DNA from: Patellaria atrata CBS 101060 | Lineage: Eukaryota | Assembly (NCBI GenBank): GCA_010093705.1 | Contig: MU006111.1 | Coordinates: 241,324 to 261,323 of the forward strand | Direction: 5' to 3' | DNA length: 20,000 bases | In this document: in pieces, positions 8,943-17,544 of the stretch | How the letters are laid out: each line of letters starts with the position of its first letter | Position numbering within the stretch: the first letter of the stretch is position 1 | Notes under the pieces: model-generated | The model's database searches: none | What the model saw: the letters and a program-made list of their open reading frames with translations, nothing else | What the model was told of the DNA's origin: nothing | Program-made: the position numbers and the translations under genes

Positions 8943-11900
8943 ATGGAAGAGCAGGAGAGCGCAGCTCAGCTGCAAGAGCTGGAGCAAACACCAGAACCCA
9001 CCGCCGCAACTGGTGAACCCAAGGTCCTTTTGGAGGAAGCGAAAGATGCTATAAAGACTTTGCCCGACAACGCACAGAATATCCAGGCTACCGTCCAGTC
9101 TGTCACGAATCATGCCCTGGGATTTCTATCTACGGCGAGCAACGAGACCCTGGGAGCTTGTCTCGTAGGACTGAGTGCAACCACATACTTGGTATTGGGA
9201 CGTGTCGGGTTGGTGTTGATAGGAGTTGTGGGTGGAGTGGTATTACACGCAAGCTGGGAAGGGAGCACGGCAGATGTAGCAGAAAAATCCAAGGAAGAGA
9301 AGAGAAGAAAGGAGGTAGGAGTCGATGTCCTCCATAGAGTTCTGGACTGGCGGACAAAAGCCCCAGAGACCGTTGATGGATCAGGGGATGGTGTAGGTAG
9401 CTTTACGAGCAGTCTTCATACTCGCAAACAGCTGGACTATTCGGAATTCAAGCCTGAGACTGCCGCGGCGCTGAACGATCTCACTGACGCCGTGATACGT
9501 GACTACGTGAGGTAGGGGATCTGTCCCCTTATAGCTGTACTTAGACTAATGTATATACAGGTGGTGGTATACTCCTGTCCTACCCTCAGAAGAGTTATTT
9601 CCTACCTCATCCCGAAAAACATTGACTGCTTTCATACTTTCCATATCAAATCATCTCTCCCGGAAGCGACCGGCCGACACGTTTCTCGATTTCCTCGCAA
9701 ACTCATCTTCCATAGTGGTAGTATTTCTCAATGAGTTAGCTAGCGCATTGACCGCATTACCATCCGCCGCTGCTCCCGAGGCTGTTGCTACATACTTGAT
9801 CTCAAAACCAGATAGCAGCTTGTCACAAATTCTAGACCGAAAGAACCAGGAAAGGAAGCTTGATATCGTCGCGGAAGATGTTCTTCAGACATACTTGGAT
9901 TCGAAAACGTATAATTGTGAACCCGCACGAGTCTTCCTCAGGGAAGTACTTGCAAAATTAATACTGGAGAAGACGGTTCAAAGTTGCTCTAAAGCCGACT
10001 GGGTCAACGGATGGATTGTCTATCTTTTAGAAGAAGGCGAGCCGGAGATAATGAACGTTATTGATACAGGAGTTAGTGGAGAATGTGGGGAGCAACTTCA
10101 GAATGTCAAAAAGCAGATGATTGCGCACGATGAAAATGCTTCAGCAGAAGCGAAACGTACGGAAGAGAAGGTCCAACAGCACAAACGAGTCGTCAGCAAA
10201 GCACAAGAAGCCATGGATGAAGCGATGAAGGAAGCACAGCGACTAACTCAACTCATAGCAGAGGAAGATGCAAAAAGGCAACGGGAACAAGGGTCTGTCA
10301 ATGCTTCAGTGAGCGACTTATCGGAGGTCACCACTCAGGGAATGGCGACACCTACATCTTCTCAGAGCGATATTAATGGGGAAAGCGATATGGCTACGTC
10401 AAGAAACATGTCTACTGAGTCATTTGGCAACGTTTTGACCGAACGGACGAACGGTTCCTCTAGCACTCTGCCTAGTATCAACACAAGCACTACTCCAGCC
10501 CCTGTCTCTGCTTCTGCTCCACAGCGTGCAGTGCCAACCCCTTTTACTAGCTTCGACCAGCTCATTCCACAACTTCCTACGGCCTTACTAGGGGAAGACG
10601 AGAAGCCGACCAAAGAGCCGCTTACCTTATCCAATGCGACTCTATCTATTTTCGATGATTCTATGCCTGGGGAAAAAGGTGTCATCCGCAGTAAACCGAA
10701 TGTAGATTATCTGATCCAGATCGAGCCTCGCTCTTCACATCATCCGGGGTGGATGATTGCTCGAAAATATGCAGACTTTGAGACACTGCACGAAATCATC
10801 AAAAGGTTATCTGTCATATCCGGCGTGGGATTCACAGAAACTCACCCTACACTACCTGCCTGGAAAGGTCATACTAAAGCTTCTCTTCGAGGAGAGCTTG
10901 AAAGATATCTGAACGATGCGGTGAAATTCAAGCCGCTAGCTGAGAGTGAAGGCCTAAAGAGATTCCTAGAAAAGGACCAAGGTTTAAGAAGCTCACCCCA
11001 TGCATCGAACAAGGGCGGATTCCCCGGTATTGGATGGCCCACCCCATCAGCTTTCGAGAACATGGGCAAAGGTATGATGGATGCTCTTACGAAGGCTCCG
11101 AAGGAAGTAGCGGGTGGCGGCAAAGCGTTGTTTGGCGGCGTCACAAGTGTACTGGGTGGTGTTGGTTCAATAGGACAGAGAAAGCAATCCGTAAATTCAG
11201 GAAGTCGAAGCCGCTCATCGACTTCAACTACTGCAACGACACCCAAATCAGGCCATATAAGGGTTGACAGTACACCGGTGGGTTTAAGTCTGAATAGGAA
11301 ATCTCAGGATGGGCTTACCTCTCAGGAGAGTCTACGACTGTCGCCCATCGTTGATCAGCAACCAGCTCCTATTCCCCAGATGGATCGGAAGCCTAGTTAT
11401 AATCCTGAAGTGGAAGCTGAGAGGGTACCTAGACTGAGTTCATCCTCAAAAGCATCTTTACATGCAAGGTCTGCAAAATCAAGTCGAGAGCCGAGTCGAG
11501 CTTCTTCGATAAGAGAAAGCTTGGATGAGCTTTCCCCTACCATGGGCGGTGATCAGATCCTCAACCTCCCTCCTCTCCCGACAGACATATCGGACGACTA
11601 CGGCAGTCCCGCCACATCATCACCCCTGCGTAACGTAAGGAACAGCGAAGAAATCAGCCGCGTCCTGAAAATATCCTCGCGCAAGCAATCCGAAGCAGAC
11701 ATCCCCTCCGTTCCGACACTCCCACCTCGCCCTTTCGAAAACAACGTCCCCACCAGCCCCCCTAAACACCCCAAACGCTCCCTGCCAAAACTTCCCCTCT
11801 CTGAAGACGAAACCAAGAATGTAGTAGAGCTCCTCTTCGCCGTCATAAACGAACTCTACACCCTCTCCTCGGCCTGGAACATCCGCCGTACCCTCCTCAC

Positions 11901-12288
11901 GGCCGCGAAAACCTACCTCCTCCGCCCCGGCAACCCGCAGCTCGAAAGCATCCGCGTACTGCTCCAAAGCAGCGTCCTCGACGCGAACACCTCAGACCCC
12001 GGGCTCGCGGCCCACATCAAGCTGCTCCGCGCCAACGCCCTTCCGACCGCGGACGAGCTGGAAACCTGGCCGCCGCCGCTTGCCGAGAGGGAGAGGGAGG
12101 CGCTCAGGGTGAAGGCGCGCAGGTTGCTCATGGAACGCGGCGTGCCGCAGGCTTTGATGAGCGTTATGGGACAGGCGGCTAGCGGTGAGGCGCTTGGGAA
12201 GGTGTTTGATTGCTTGCAGGTTGAGGAGGTCGCGAGGGGTTTGGTGTTTGGCTTGCTCTTGCAGGCTGTTCGGGCTGTCACGCAGTGA
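8943..12288 (+). CDS. PXA-PX-PXC (Nexin_C) sorting-nexin-like membrane protein (Mdm1/SNX13-related, Pxa1-like), about 1098 aa
   Basis: Exons 8943-9511 and 9561-12288, intron GTAGGG..ACTAAT..CAG. N-terminal hydrophobic segments, PXA start 'DAVIRDYVRWWY', PX domain (YLIQIEP..GWMIARKYADFETLH..LERYLN..FLE) and C-terminal PXC (ELYTLSSAWNIRRTLL...VFDCLQ). Confidence 0.88.
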
Positions 12289-13069
12289 TCCCTTTTCATT
12301 CACGGTTGGGATTTCGAAGTGTCCTGGGGATTTGGGGGGTTGGTATCGTGGAACCTCCTGGAATGTAGAAGTACGAGGTCAGTAGATGCAGGCGAGGCTG
12401 TGTTTGTGTTTCGAATTGCTAGATGTGTGAGTGAGGTGCGGTGTTTATTGGGGAATTGCGTCCTGTACAATATGAACTATCATGAAGGGTTATGTATCAA
12501 GACGGCCGATTTAAAGATATACAAAACGTATAGTCCGTGCTGGACAGTACGCTGAAAACATGCTGCGCTCATAGGAAATTGGTGATATGCGTCTCGGAGA
12601 ACGCTTCCGTATCCTTCACACGATGATCTCTCGAGTTATGGGAACCGGTCCTCAGACGTACTGCTTCACGCCCGCCATGAGAATGTTATTATACCTTATA
12701 TTAGCTACGTGCCGGAGAAATAGGAACATCTTCTCTCCTATCCCGTCACGAAAAAAGCCGTGTTTACAGAAAATTCTCCGAAAACCATCAGAATATGCTT
12801 AACTATTTTGAATATGCCCGTTCCGATACTTTCCCTACATGTACCGTTCCCAAGCCGAATATACACCGAAAGTCATTTTCCCATCTGCCCCCTACCTTGT
12901 ATAAGTTACTACAAGCAAATCCCTCGGCAGAGGCCCTATGCGAAAACTCCACACCTCACCTCCCCCCTCACCATCCCGCTGCCGCGTTCGCCGCGGCGGC
13001 CTCAGCCCAGGAATCCGCACCCTCGACATAGCCGCCCCAATCTCTACCCCAGCTGGCTCCGCCATCTAG

Positions 13070-14876
13070 TCAATCGCTATCGACGCTGCCCCCGTCCTCA
13101 CGCACAGGCATGCGCGTCGTCCTGCTAAGAGAAAAATCCAAAATGTCGCTGCGGGGCTCGACGTACTTCTTCTGGCACCAGCTGCAGCGGACCGCGGCTG
13201 TGCGCTCCCTGCCCAAGGTGTCGCGCGTCGTGCCTTTGATGAAGATGAGCTGGTTCTTAGAGTCCTCGCGGTCGTAGACTTTATCGGAGACGCCGAAGGC
13301 GAGGACGGCGAGGCGGGTTTGGGGGGCGGGGACGGAGGGGTTGGGGGCGAAGTGGAGGGGGTGCGGGCCGTGTGGGGTAAGGTAGAGTTTTGCGAGGGCG
13401 GCGAGGAGGGTTTCGTAGAGGGTGCGTGGGAGGCGGGTTAGGGATGTTGCGATCGTGGGGAAGGTTGTGATGTTTAGCGTTATTAAGCCGGAGAGGTGTG
13501 AGAGGGCGCTCTGTGTGGCGTAGGTCAGCTATGTTCTGATATTTGATATACTAGGTAATTTGAATAGGAAGGGGCGTAGGGGAAGCATACATCGAAGGCG
13601 AGAAACTCTGCGCTAAGGTTTCGGAGGACGTTCGTCTGTGGGAAGGCTATGGAGAGCTGTTCGAGCCTTACGCAGGCTTTGCAGATGGAGTGGAAGGACT
13701 CGTAGTCATAAACGTGTTCTTCGTCCTCCCCGCCTCCGAGTGAAGCGTGGAGATTCAGTTGATTAAGCGTTCGGCCGTGTCTTGTTATGCAAGCTACCGC
13801 GGGGAGCGACTTCACGAAGCACATGTCCACTGTTAGCACCCTTATTCCAGATACAAGACAAAGGAAGCCCTCAAGTGCGTGCAAAGCATCGTTCTCGGTG
13901 TTATCGTCATGCTTGAACTCTAACGTTTCTAGCTTCTCGGGCATTAGGGTGATCTTGCTGAGTTCGGCGAACAGCGCATCCGCACCTGGACAGCCGAAGA
14001 TACGAAGAGATTTGAGGTGGCCGAAATCTATGATTTTGCAATAAGTATTCGAGGCGTACCGTAGAGCAATCTTCTGAAGGGTCAAGTTGCGCAGAACTAT
14101 AGGTGTACATTTATCAAATGGCAGCATATGGCTAAATATCGTCCCAGTAAGGAGACCTGGCCCTGTACTAGAGTCGTTAAGCTCTCTGGACGAGACATCC
14201 GTCAGAAGATCGTCGAAACTGGAGTGTAGGGTGATTTTCTGGACCTTGGGCGAGTTCTTGACCAGGTAATTGCAATAGTTCAGCACCTCTCTACTATCAG
14301 GATATAGACCCAGCTTCTTCACTTGACTAAACACATTCTTAATGTTCGGTATGGTTTGTATCTCCGGCAGAGCATCTCTGTCACATGCTATAGCTTCCAT
14401 CCATTTCATCCTCCTCTGTTTCTTGTACAGCAATATTAAATTGTCAGTCGAGAACTGGGACCAAGGATGCCATGAGAACTTTTCGAGGATATTCTCAGGG
14501 AGGAGCGCCAGGATCGCCCGAATGGTAAAATTCGCCAGTTGTATTTGATTGCATTTGTCTACCACTTCCGCAAGATATAGGTCTATCTTGCGAACGTATG
14601 GAAGGCCAATATTCCCAGGATTTAGGAAGTCTAGGAGCCGGGTGTCGTTTGCGGTTCCGATATCGATTGTGACTTCGTTGTATAGTTGTGGGACTGTGAG
14701 TCTATGTAACTGTTTGCAGGTAAGGCATAGGTTTTTCATGTCCGTGGGACGAGTAACCTAGCTTGATATCAGTGTCTTGTCTAATAATAGCAGCCTGCAC
14801 GGTTAATCAAATTTACATGGTCGATGATAAGGCGTTGGACGTCTTCTATAAGGTCCATGAACTGTAGACGACCCAT
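13070..14876 (-). CDS. F-box-like protein with a leucine-rich-repeat-like body, about 555 aa
   Basis: Exons 14876-14817, 14757-13591, 13510-13070, with introns GTAAAT..CTGAT..TAG and GTATGC..GCTGAC..CAG. The N-terminus FMDLIEDVQRLIIDHVTRPTDMKNLCLTCKQLH is F-box-like, followed by LxxL repeats. Ends ...EDGGSVDSD-TGA. Confidence 0.8.
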
Positions 14877-15724
14877 ATTAGCCAGATTAGTGAAATGAAT
14901 TTGCTCCTTTACTCGTCGGTGTAGGGGATGTGCAAAGTTTGATAGAACTACAGTTGCCTATCACCTGAAGATATCAACTGTGGATGCAAATGAAAAGAGT
15001 GGCGATTCGATAAAGATGCTAACAGATGTAGCTAAAGAGGATTGATGATCTTATAGAATGAATGACGATTTGCGCGTATATGAGGATGTATCACAATTTT
15101 TATTGTCTTGCAAAATCGGCGATACCGTTCGCTCGGTCAGCCCTGTGTTTTCAGGTGGGAAAACGAGACGCGGTGGTTGACTGCTCTATCCCAACTGGCA
15201 TTATTAGAGAGAGCAAACAAACCGCTGTACTGATCTCCCTGTACAGACAAGGAATCATATTGTCAACCTTTTGGTTTCTCACTGTTTTGGAACTTTGTCG
15301 ATCGTGTATTTTGAGGAGTAGACAACGTGGGGGTGAGACCAGCACAGGAAGATATCCGGCTCGCCCGAATAGGTCCGCTTATTGACAACTCTAATACCTT
15401 AGATACAGTGTCTAGGTCCAGAACTGAACCATTTTTTACACGTAGAAATGCATAGACTACTCTCAGACACGGGCTCTGTCAATTCAGGTATACAGCCCGT
15501 GGAAAAAAACATCATTTAAATATACTCAGACCGCAGTAGATAGATATCAAGAGCATATACATCAAGACCTTTTATATCAAACTCAAAGAGTTGAATCTTG
15601 GCCAAACCCTCCAAGAACAGTTGAACCACATGCGACCTTCGCCATATGCGCCTGAATATGCAAGTCACCCTCAGTAAACTCTTCCATTCCTACTAGTCAC
15701 AATGCCTCATCTCCTATGCATCGC

Positions 15725-17544
15725 TCAATCATCCCCATCTTCCCAGGGTAAACTAAATGTTCCAACCCAATCCTCCACTTCCTTCCTCAACTGAACAATC
15801 TCCACCACATCCTCTCCCTCGCCTAGATACTCTGTAAATGCCTTGACGCTTCCCGGATTCTTCCTTCTACTCTTCTCTGCTGCCTCTTTCGCCTTCTTAT
15901 CAACATCGAGCGTGATACCGACGGCACGATGCACAACATCCGCCACACGCCTGAAGTCATCTGGCTGGAATCCACGAGTAGTCATGGCCGGAGATCCCAT
16001 GCGTAGACCACCTGGTTTCATCGCAGACTTGTCGCCGGGGACGGTATTCTTGTTTGAGGCGACACCAACAAGCTCGAGAACACGCTCAACGCGAGCACCG
16101 TCAATGCCGCGGTCCTTAAGGTCAACAAGGACGAGGTGGTTATCAGTACCACCGCTTACAACCTTATAACCGAGACCACCCGACTCCTTTGGATTTCCCA
16201 GTCGATCTGCTAGCGATTTCGCGTTTTTAAGAACTGTTTGTTGGTACTCTTTGAACTCAGGGGTTTGAGCTTGGTGTAGTGCAACGGCAAGGGCTGTGAT
16301 GGTGTGGTTGTGAGGGCCACCCTGGTGACCGGGGAAGACTGACATATTGATAGGGCCTTCTAGGTCGTACATCTCTTCATTACCCTTTTTGTCGGTTCGG
16401 CGGACGCCTTTACGATAGAATATCATTGCACCTCGTGGTCCGCGGAGAGACTTATGGGTTGTAGTTGTCACAACATCAGCATATTGAAACGGTGAAGGGA
16501 TAACACCTGCTGCAGCAAGACCAGAGACGTGTGCCATATCACTGTAGAGGTATGCGCCAATCTTGTCACAAATAGCACGCATGCGGTCGTATTCGATCAA
16601 TCGACTGTAAGCGGAAGTGCCTGCGATTATGATCTTGGGTCGATAGAGAGTAGCATTTTCTTCTAGCCTGTCGTAATCAATTATCCCAGTCTTCTCATTT
16701 AACCTGTATGGAAACGTCTCGAAGTATTTTGATATCGCAGAAATCTTCTTGCCGGGTATTTGGTAACCGTGCGATAAGTGACCCCCATGGGGTAGGTCTA
16801 GGCCCATGATACGATCGTGAGGTTGGAGAACAGCGGAATATGCATAAAGATTGGCCGGTGATCCAGATAACGCTTGGAAATTGTTAGTACCATTTTCAAA
16901 ATCCGTGAAATGGGTGTAGCGCACGCTGAACATTGACTCCCCATTCGTCCTCTTTCAAACCGAAAGTTTGCAATGCTCTTCGCTGACATAGGCGTTCAGC
17001 TTCATCTATGAATTCGTTTCCTCCGTAGTATCGTGCTCCAGGATATCCTTCTGAATACTTGTCTGTGGTCTAGATGTTAGCATTACTCCCTCTGGGGGTG
17101 TATCCTTCGAGTTCTATGATCTAGCATACTTTGCATTACACTCCCTAGCGCATCCAAAACAGCTTGTGAAGTGAAATTCTCCGAGGGTATAAGGTTTATA
17201 AAATGTTTCTGCCTCCTCTTCTCCTAGAATACCACATTCATCAGGATCCAGTAGCTGTATGGGTCATTCTCGATACCTGACGTACCTTTTGTATTATTTC
17301 ATACACAATAGGATCTGCATCTTCTAAATCGGCAGACAGAATCTATAAATCAATAATTAGCGACCGGCACAATCTTACAGCACAACGCTATAAATCATTC
17401 TCGTACCTTATGCTGAGCATCCAGCGACAGACCCCGCCTAGTAGAAACCCTCAAACCGGGACTCCATCTCGTCCCAATTGGTCTCCCAGCAGCTCTAGCA
17501 AGCAGACTCACCGATGCCCTCGAAGAGACCACAAAATTCGCCAT
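15725..17544 (-). CDS. SHM1: Serine hydroxymethyltransferase, mitochondrial, about 524 aa
   Basis: Exons 17544-17407, 17342-17286, 17223-17130, 17062-16925, 16872-15725. Motifs [42 protein letters not shown] and the PLP-lysine motif [13 protein letters not shown]. The Arg/Ser-rich, acid-poor N-terminus [21 protein letters not shown] fits a mitochondrial presequence. Confidence 0.95.

Follow-up and report, generated by a model that had tools for sequence, protein, structure and literature searches.

A weak stop codon with an in-frame tryptophan behind it in an F-box/LRR gene of Patellaria atrata and its Dothideomycete relatives: a candidate for functional readthrough

We analyzed a 20,000-nucleotide stretch of the genome of Patellaria atrata CBS 101060 (assembly GCA_010093705.1, contig MU006111.1, positions 241,324 to 261,323 of the forward strand), hereafter called the window and numbered from its first letter. 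On its minus strand lies a three-exon F-box/LRR gene whose reading frame stays open behind the stop codon. The splice model joins 14876-14817, 14757-13591 and 13510-13070 into a product of 555 amino acids (aa). Exon 1 (14817..14876) encodes MGRLQFMDLIEDVQRLIIDH, the first half of the F-box, and intron 1 (14816-14758, GTAAAT...CTAG) separates it from exon 2 (13591..14757), an open reading frame (ORF) of 389 aa that holds the remaining F-box and most of the LRR domain. The product of exon 2 is 100% identical to the database entry P0001, a 555-aa hypothetical protein of Patellaria atrata CBS 101060, which is equal in length to the product of the splice model. Exon 3 (13073..13510) contributes 146 aa and closes with the acidic end ...REDGGSVDSD, a tail whose homologs in 47 close orthologs end in ...S-D-D-S-D.

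The coding sequence finishes with GAT AGC GAT TGA. This first stop (13070..13072) is followed directly by CTAG (13066..13069), which completes the high-readthrough context UGA CUA G, and the frame then remains open for 33 codons (LDGGASWGRDWGGYVEGADSWAEAAAANAAAGW, 12971..13069) until a second in-frame TGA (12968..12970). Four codons of the extension specify tryptophan (Trp), at 13051-13049, 13039-13037, 13009-13007 and 12973-12971, and the last of them is also the final residue, giving an end A-G-W before the TGA. A first-pass annotation of the window had pointed to this arrangement, DSD-TGA-CTAG and 33 open codons with four Trp at the end of an F-box-like gene, and its description is exact on the minus strand. 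It was also right that the extension lacks a peroxisomal targeting signal of type 1 (PTS1), the end being A-G-W and not an SKL-type tripeptide, and the leakiness that it attributed to UGA-CUA(G) in fungi and animals is documented in the literature (PMC4207609; PMC4132726).

We characterized the encoded protein by domain scores and by a structural model of an ortholog. On P0001, the Pfam F-box-like family scores 13.3 bits, below its cut-off of 24.3, and DUF3760 scores 25.1 bits against a cut-off of 26.6; on the ortholog P0115, the F-box-like score is 27.4 bits and lies above the cut-off. The AlphaFold2 model of P0115 has a mean predicted local distance difference test score (pLDDT) of 86.5, and its best matches in the PDB are COI1, TIR1, D3/MAX2, Dia2, FBXL3 and FBXL17. 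An LRR solenoid follows the F-box in this model, and the gene product is a predicted F-box/LRR substrate receptor of Dothideomycetes. A protein search with exon 2 returned 232 matches, and the tail counts of the next paragraph rest on the 120 of them that were listed; among these, all relatives with a named source belong to the Dothideomycetes.

The position of the first stop is shared widely among these relatives. Among the matches listed, 55 proteins have a recognizable C-terminal anchor, and in 47 of the 55 the tail has no Trp. The stop position is conserved, because S-[DE]-[DE]-S-[DE] immediately precedes it in nearly all of these 47 Trp-less orthologs. The same position is used by the named Pleosporales and by Mytilinidion, Venturia, Microthyrium and Trichodelitschia, and five Botryosphaeriales proteins extend further, to ...GVGWLAN or ...SAPGW. 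When ortholog searches (5 and 6 matches) were inspected for a sense codon at the stop position, P0175 alone continued, as ...DSD-W-VRQGRNAMVAWGSS... This protein, from a Joint Genome Institute (JGI) metagenome, runs 25 residues past the stop position, and the near-identical P0180 stops at DSD. The difference may reflect a natural polymorphism between TGA and TGG, or the gene call of P0175 may have read TGA as Trp; because of the latter possibility, we left this protein out of the counts.

We then compared the DNA behind the stop in related lineages. A scan of metagenome contigs yielded 51 loci, of which 29 reach the C-terminus with a stop. After near-duplicates had been merged, 15 of these loci formed 11 lineages with a DSD-type end, or 12 with the window; the other merged lineages comprise three with a GGDE- or NGDD-type end and eight with an aromatic/acidic end inside the main ORF. 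By best named relative, eight of the 11 DSD lineages are Pleosporales-like and one each lies near Mytilinidion, Trichodelitschia and Venturia, and the 12 lineages accordingly span Pleosporales, Mytilinidiales, Phaeotrichales, Venturiales and Patellariales. The stop, whose position is common to all DSD-type orthologs, is TGA in 10 of the 12 lineages and TGA-C in eight, five of which read TGA CAG. Readthrough in plants and yeast is enhanced by a hexamer of the CAR type (PMC4132726), and the yeast CARNBA stimulator is fully matched in two of the TGA CAG lineages, L008 and L011.

Read in frame up to the next stop, the extensions are short and diverse. TGA-C is followed by LAGW in L004, RRLIW in L005, QTVFEGGWS in L014, QSQQGLVGGPPRWGWM in L013, QGDEVVEWGQPDGDDGW in L007, QTRSTGGMDWRHTVANEW in L011 and QVRGGEALGWGQGMFGVQ in L008. 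In L034 the stop is TGA-T and the extension WDRGGEGADWVD, in L003 TGA-A and NR, in L001 TAA-A and TESNSRQSWG, and in L041 TAA-T and LPLLPPASG. The ortholog extensions contain 0-2 Trp each and end in W, WG, WS, WM, WVD, VQ, NR or SG. In five of the 12 lineages (the window, L004, L005, L007 and L011), Trp is the very last residue of the read-through form.

Several further observations concern the anatomy of these loci. The last Trp codon and second stop of the window form TGG TGA G (12965-12973, minus strand), a string that also occurs in L004 and L005 and resembles G|GTGAG, a 5' splice donor. In L007 and L011, TGG TAG stands at the same place instead. Intron 2 of the window gene is missing in L004 (1460-3127) and L008 (4001-5656), where the F-box region and the stop belong to one uninterrupted ORF. 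In P0175 and L007, the sequence inserted at intron positions keeps the frame and contains no stop, and gene callers that work from ORFs read straight through it. The third clade (L017, L018 and L025) ends in ...GGDE or ...NGDD, followed by TGA-G and long in-frame stretches of 44, 23 and 21 codons; the first post-stop codons of L017 and L025 are alike and then diverge, probably by an indel.

The feature that recurs behind the stop is a Trp close to the end of the open frame. In nine of the 12 lineages, a Trp codon is among the three that precede the next in-frame stop, compared with one of 12 for either alternative frame and with 10/150 for further long ORFs of these loci and the window (Fisher p = 1e-7; 8/11 and p = 6e-7 without the window). 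The remaining stop triplets in the 300 nucleotides (nt) downstream, each read in its own frame, give 7/140. Across 2000 dinucleotide shuffles, the mean was 0.9/12 for 150-nt windows and 1.6/12 for the extensions only, the maximum was 5-7 and none reached nine. TGG triplets are likewise concentrated in the open frame of the extensions, with 17 in frame versus four and five in the other frames (p = 8e-4; 13/21 in frame and p = 7e-3 without the window). The stop context itself is also enriched, as TGA-C is found in 8/12 lineages versus 13/150 background ORFs (p = 7e-6).

These Trp codons stand in DNA that is otherwise randomized. Over the first 60 nt after the stop, the median identity between lineages is 0.55, and that of shuffled sequences is 0.55 as well. 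Because the post-stop DNA has diverged to the level of shuffled sequence, the kept Trp is not a matter of simple inheritance or slow divergence. The eight lineages that already have a Trp in the main ORF provide a further comparison, and none of their post-stop frames ends in Trp (0/8). Where extensions can be compared in part, W-G-Q is written TGG GGG CAA in L007 and TGG GGC CAG in L008, R-G-G-E is written CGG GGC GGC GAG in L008 and AGA GGC GGT GAG in L034, and L014 differs from L034, and L008 from L013, by indels of one codon. Such synonymous changes and single-codon indels hint at constraint on the protein level, as anecdotes and not as a test. A significant periodicity of codon-position composition obtained after removal of TGG was discarded as an artifact that arises when codons beginning with T are left out of an open frame.

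We next turn to the relatives whose main ORF extends beyond the acidic cluster. We queried 1.84 billion cluster representatives, without a profile, with exon 3 joined to the extension and Trp in place of the stop; none of the 48 matches aligned convincingly through the whole extension. A tail Trp is nevertheless present in 24 of the 43 matches with a scorable tail, almost always beside an acidic run and within about 10 residues of the end. Examples of these C-termini are ...DGDGWDDD, ...LGWDPDDDDEND, ...FGWGDDE, ...GGWGEEDD, ...DDDGGW, ...NDGWG and ...GPDW. Two of the Trp-tail matches are named, Peltaster fructicola and Saxophila tyrrhenica, the five Botryosphaeriales proteins mentioned above show the pattern as well, and the main-ORF Trp was confirmed on the DNA as TGG in the standard code for L020 (...NDDGW), L027 (...GDDGW), L040, L046 and L050. 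Our claim of a motif rests on these named and DNA-verified cases, because metagenome proteins could contain a TGA read as Trp. The Trp is the last residue of the main ORF in L020, L027, P0115, P0125, P0129 and P0152. In the model of P0115, the seven residues at the end of the tail (557-563) have a pLDDT below 50, and the tail is predicted to be disordered.

The C-terminus of the family is thus a tail of predicted disorder with an acidic cluster and a Trp, usually as GW. Judged by its sequences, the DSD group appears to keep the acidic half of this motif in the main ORF and to have the Trp behind the stop. The S-D-D-S-D end of the 47 orthologs resembles a cluster of acidophilic (CK2-type) kinase sites, and its phosphorylation could modulate the acidic half. 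The first-pass annotation had likened the Trp contexts of the extension to short linear interaction motifs. Comparison singles out the Trp near the second stop, which lies within three codons of it in nine of 12 lineages and has a counterpart in the acidic and Trp end of distant relatives; the other sequence of the extension is not kept.

We therefore consider a conserved, low-level readthrough of UGA that adds the C-terminal Trp motif of the family and would produce two isoforms of the receptor, a reading to which we assign a probability of roughly 0.55. The gene is a credible candidate for the class of functional readthrough, as far as sequence comparison can tell. UGA is described as the leakiest stop codon and C at +4 as promoting its near-cognate decoding (PMC12233894), and UGA CU(A)(G) is an active readthrough context in Ustilago and in human cells (PMC4207609). 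Human cells are reported to insert Trp or Arg at a decoded UGA, and yeast to insert Trp, Arg or Cys (PMC5133446).

In the group to which the window belongs, the main ORF ends after the acidic cluster ...SDDSD at a stop that is usually of the weakest type (UGA followed by C, and UGA CUAG in the window), with a Trp codon sitting a few codons past it in the same frame. Under this reading, most ribosomes would terminate at this stop and yield the Trp-less receptor. In a few percent of cases, a near-cognate tRNA for Trp, Arg or Cys would decode the UGA, and translation would go on for another 4-33 codons. The read-through end would then bear the Trp and restore the acidic and Trp motif of the family. 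Consequently, two isoforms would coexist in the cell, set apart by a short interaction motif in the tail.

A number of points weigh against this reading, and the first concerns the window itself. When the first 150 nt after its stop are shuffled, an open frame of at least 33 codons appears in 34% of trials (P = 0.34), and 52 of the 153 long ORFs of the window and the related loci are followed by a post-stop frame of at least 33 codons. TGACTAG occurs three times in the window; the expected number is 2.41, and three copies are reached in 78 of 200 shuffles. Folding of the RNA of 12940-13090 gave a structure that is not unusual versus shuffles (z = +0.41). Taken alone, the feature in the window is no more than chance. 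Moreover, the conservation test proposed in the first-pass annotation, namely whether orthologs keep TGACTAG, fails as written because the heptamer is present in none of the 11 other lineages (CTAG follows the stop in the window only). The ortholog extensions are 2-18 codons long and contain no alignable sequence, and L003 stops after two codons.

The lineages also differ in what they retain. The stop is TAA in L001 and L041, Trp is entirely absent from the extensions of L003 and L041, the Trp of L008 lies only in mid-extension and that of L034 three codons before the stop. The third clade has TGA-G and long extensions, and one of its members has no Trp. Were the DNA of P0175 added as a 13th lineage, the Trp-end statistic would gain a miss. 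The lineages are related, eight of the 12 being Pleosporales-like, and all five TGA CAG stops fall among these eight. The statistic of a Trp in the last three codons was picked after the data had been seen, and, taken over all codons, the extensions show no significant periodicity in codon-position composition (p = 0.26). All of the ortholog DNA comes from metagenome contigs. In the protein tree, whose automatic 'W' label is wrong for Bathelium and P0154 (their Trp sits in a conserved block and not in the tail), the backbone is unresolved and leaves undecided whether the early stop had a single origin or several. Finally, the sequencing runs that contain the locus, two from one sample (X1 and X2), are DNA, and their contigs pass through the introns without splice junctions; readthrough by ribosomes, its rate and any binding by the tail are inferred.

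Many of these points recur in the most serious alternative, that the extension has no function. The context in the window would be chance, the Trp of the orthologs would come from an unmodeled bias (G-rich 3' ends, hot spots of TGG-to-TGA/TAG mutation or an older tail in decay), and any read-through product would be noise. Consistent with such an origin are the chance-level features of the window, the unconserved sequence and length of the extensions, their non-significant periodicity and the post hoc choice of the statistic. To these may be added that the extensions are G-rich (G is 0.45, versus 0.32 further downstream) and that three of 12 lineages lack a terminal Trp. The controls are harder to accommodate, as shuffles, other frames, other stops and other genes give 5-13% versus the 75% observed. 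A relic should have decayed across orders, given that the surrounding DNA is randomized, and the lineages with a Trp in the main ORF give 0/8 Trp ends. We regard the absence of function as unlikely, although the sample is small, its members are related and the statistic is post hoc.

A second alternative accepts that readthrough is selected and changes its use. The extension would serve as a dosage or stability device, providing a destabilizing or stabilizing C-terminus in place of a binding motif, and the Trp would matter for turnover alone. Readthrough peptides in yeast tend to have destabilizing C-termini and Trp is rare at natural C-termini, as described in PMC10493509, and stop-loss editing of Fusarium DBF2 is reported to yield an unstable protein and a lower dosage (PMC13123824); the predicted disorder of the P0115 tail would also suit such a device. 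In contrast, Trp at position -2 is enriched among the stable variants of a yeast screen (PMC10493509), and relatives that hold the acidic and Trp end constitutively in the main ORF are hard to fit with a pure degron. We consider this use of the extension to be rather improbable.

The same product, DSD-W followed by the extension, would arise if A-to-I editing of the mRNA converted UGA to UGG during sexual development and thereby bypassed the stop. Editing that removes stop codons is known in filamentous ascomycetes, in papers that concern Fusarium, Neurospora and others (PMC4817773, PMC11156358, PMC5381528), and an edited UGA would be read as Trp. Fungal editing, however, prefers a U at -1 and hairpin loops, and thus UAG and UAA stops (PMC11156358), whereas 10 of the 12 lineages have UGA, with G at -1. 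A hairpin is not evident in the window in the folding of 12940-13090, and editing is very unlikely to be the source of the Trp tail. To our knowledge, A-to-I editing has not been reported in Dothideomycetes.

Least probable of all is a second mRNA isoform in which alternative splicing removes the stop and joins the extension: although fungi reportedly add cryptic C-terminal signals both by alternative splicing and by readthrough (Freitag et al. 2012), a 40-nt GTGCGT...CTAG stretch spans the stop in the window and CAG directly follows the stop in five lineages, that stretch joins in the wrong frame and without the Trp tail, the four- and five-codon extensions of L004 and L005 are too short for an intron that spares the SDDSD end, and no donor is common to the lineages. 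The 40-nt stretch was the sole GT...AG candidate for a spliced bypass in the window and was rejected as out of frame.

The surroundings of the gene are as follows. A long plus-strand ORF at 9553-12285 encodes a sorting-nexin-type protein with PXA, PX and Nexin_C domains (Pfam E = 7e-29, 9e-7 and 6e-22, respectively); it is convergent with the F-box gene, and the two stops lie about 780 nt apart. On the minus strand, 15728-16954 is an exon of serine hydroxymethyltransferase (Pfam SHMT, E = 2e-153). Neither of the two other copies of TGACTAG in the window stands at the stop of a long ORF. The copy at 15693-15699 lies 26 nt past the stop of the serine hydroxymethyltransferase exon and is not a stop context.

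Returning to conserved UGA readthrough, we compare it with known systems, beginning with the function that a terminal Trp could have. FBXL3 has a similar F-box/LRR fold, and chain 4i6j_B from its complex with CRY2 (SCF-FBXL3, PDB 4I6J) is a Foldseek match of the P0115 model (E = 3.3e-5, rank 33). The last residue of FBXL3, Trp428, occupies the flavin adenine dinucleotide pocket of CRY2, as described in PMC9845712, and Trp is terminal both in FBXL3 and in the read-through form of the window, L004, L005, L007 and L011. In contrast, the tails have no sequence homology and that of FBXL3 is inside the main ORF; the likeness is one of analogy. By this analogy, UGA could act as a conditional Trp codon within the acidic and Trp motif, at which ribosomes would place a Trp immediately behind ...SDDSD and then append a tail with another Trp at its end, the terminal Trp of the tail could plug a pocket of a substrate or regulator in the manner of FBXL3, and a rate of readthrough tuned by growth conditions could set the share of receptors that serve one class of targets, an arrangement kept across several orders of Dothideomycetes. 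We put this forward as a speculative extension of the readthrough reading and hold it, in its entirety, to be doubtful.

The extension of the window also recalls the GW/WG hooks that bind Argonaute, with its SWG, DWG, SWA and GW in a Gly/Ala/Asp-rich and probably disordered stretch. Argonaute hooks are typically multiple, whereas the ortholog extensions have 0-2 Trp and the relatives one or two, and the likeness is pure speculation. Stop-loss A-to-I editing in Sordariomycetes, as described for Fusarium DBF2 and PUK1, resembles the present case in that a stop is bypassed, a C-terminally extended isoform results and the edited codon can read as Trp; it differs in favoring UAG and UAA with U at -1, where the stop here is mainly UGA.

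Closer parallels are found among genes with documented readthrough. The vertebrate genes OPRL1, OPRK1, SACM1L and MAPK10 (Loughran et al. 2014, PMC4132726) share with the window the identical seven-nucleotide context and have a comparative signal past the stop. Their motif is described as conserved throughout vertebrates and their extensions as having positive coding scores, whereas here the motif is lineage-specific and the Trp alone is kept. Among the papers listed by full-text searches on fungal readthrough and F-box extensions, judged by titles and abstracts, we found no case of this kind. The fungal genes for which conserved cellular readthrough has so far been documented mostly encode enzymes that thereby acquire a peroxisomal signal. 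If our reading is true, a ubiquitin-ligase receptor whose Trp motif lies past a leaky stop would carry the principle over to signaling and proteolysis.

The peroxisomal cases are also the nearest in kind. In PTS1 readthrough, as described for Pgk1, Tpi1, Art1 and Rpe1 of Ustilago and for mammalian LDHB and MDH1, a UGA followed by C precedes a short extension of which only the terminal motif is conserved. The appended motif is part of the normal ORF in some species (PMC4207609), and it can accordingly be constitutive in some relatives and lie behind a leaky stop in others, as the acidic and Trp end appears to do here. The present gene differs in that its extension ends in AGW, its product is an SCF receptor and not a metabolic enzyme, CUA(G) is not kept while TGA-C is found in 8/12 lineages, and the case is known from its sequence. 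The comparison suggests that a readthrough candidate can be conserved as a weak stop plus one residue while the CUAG context and the sequence of the extension drift, and such cases would escape screens that are based on alignment.

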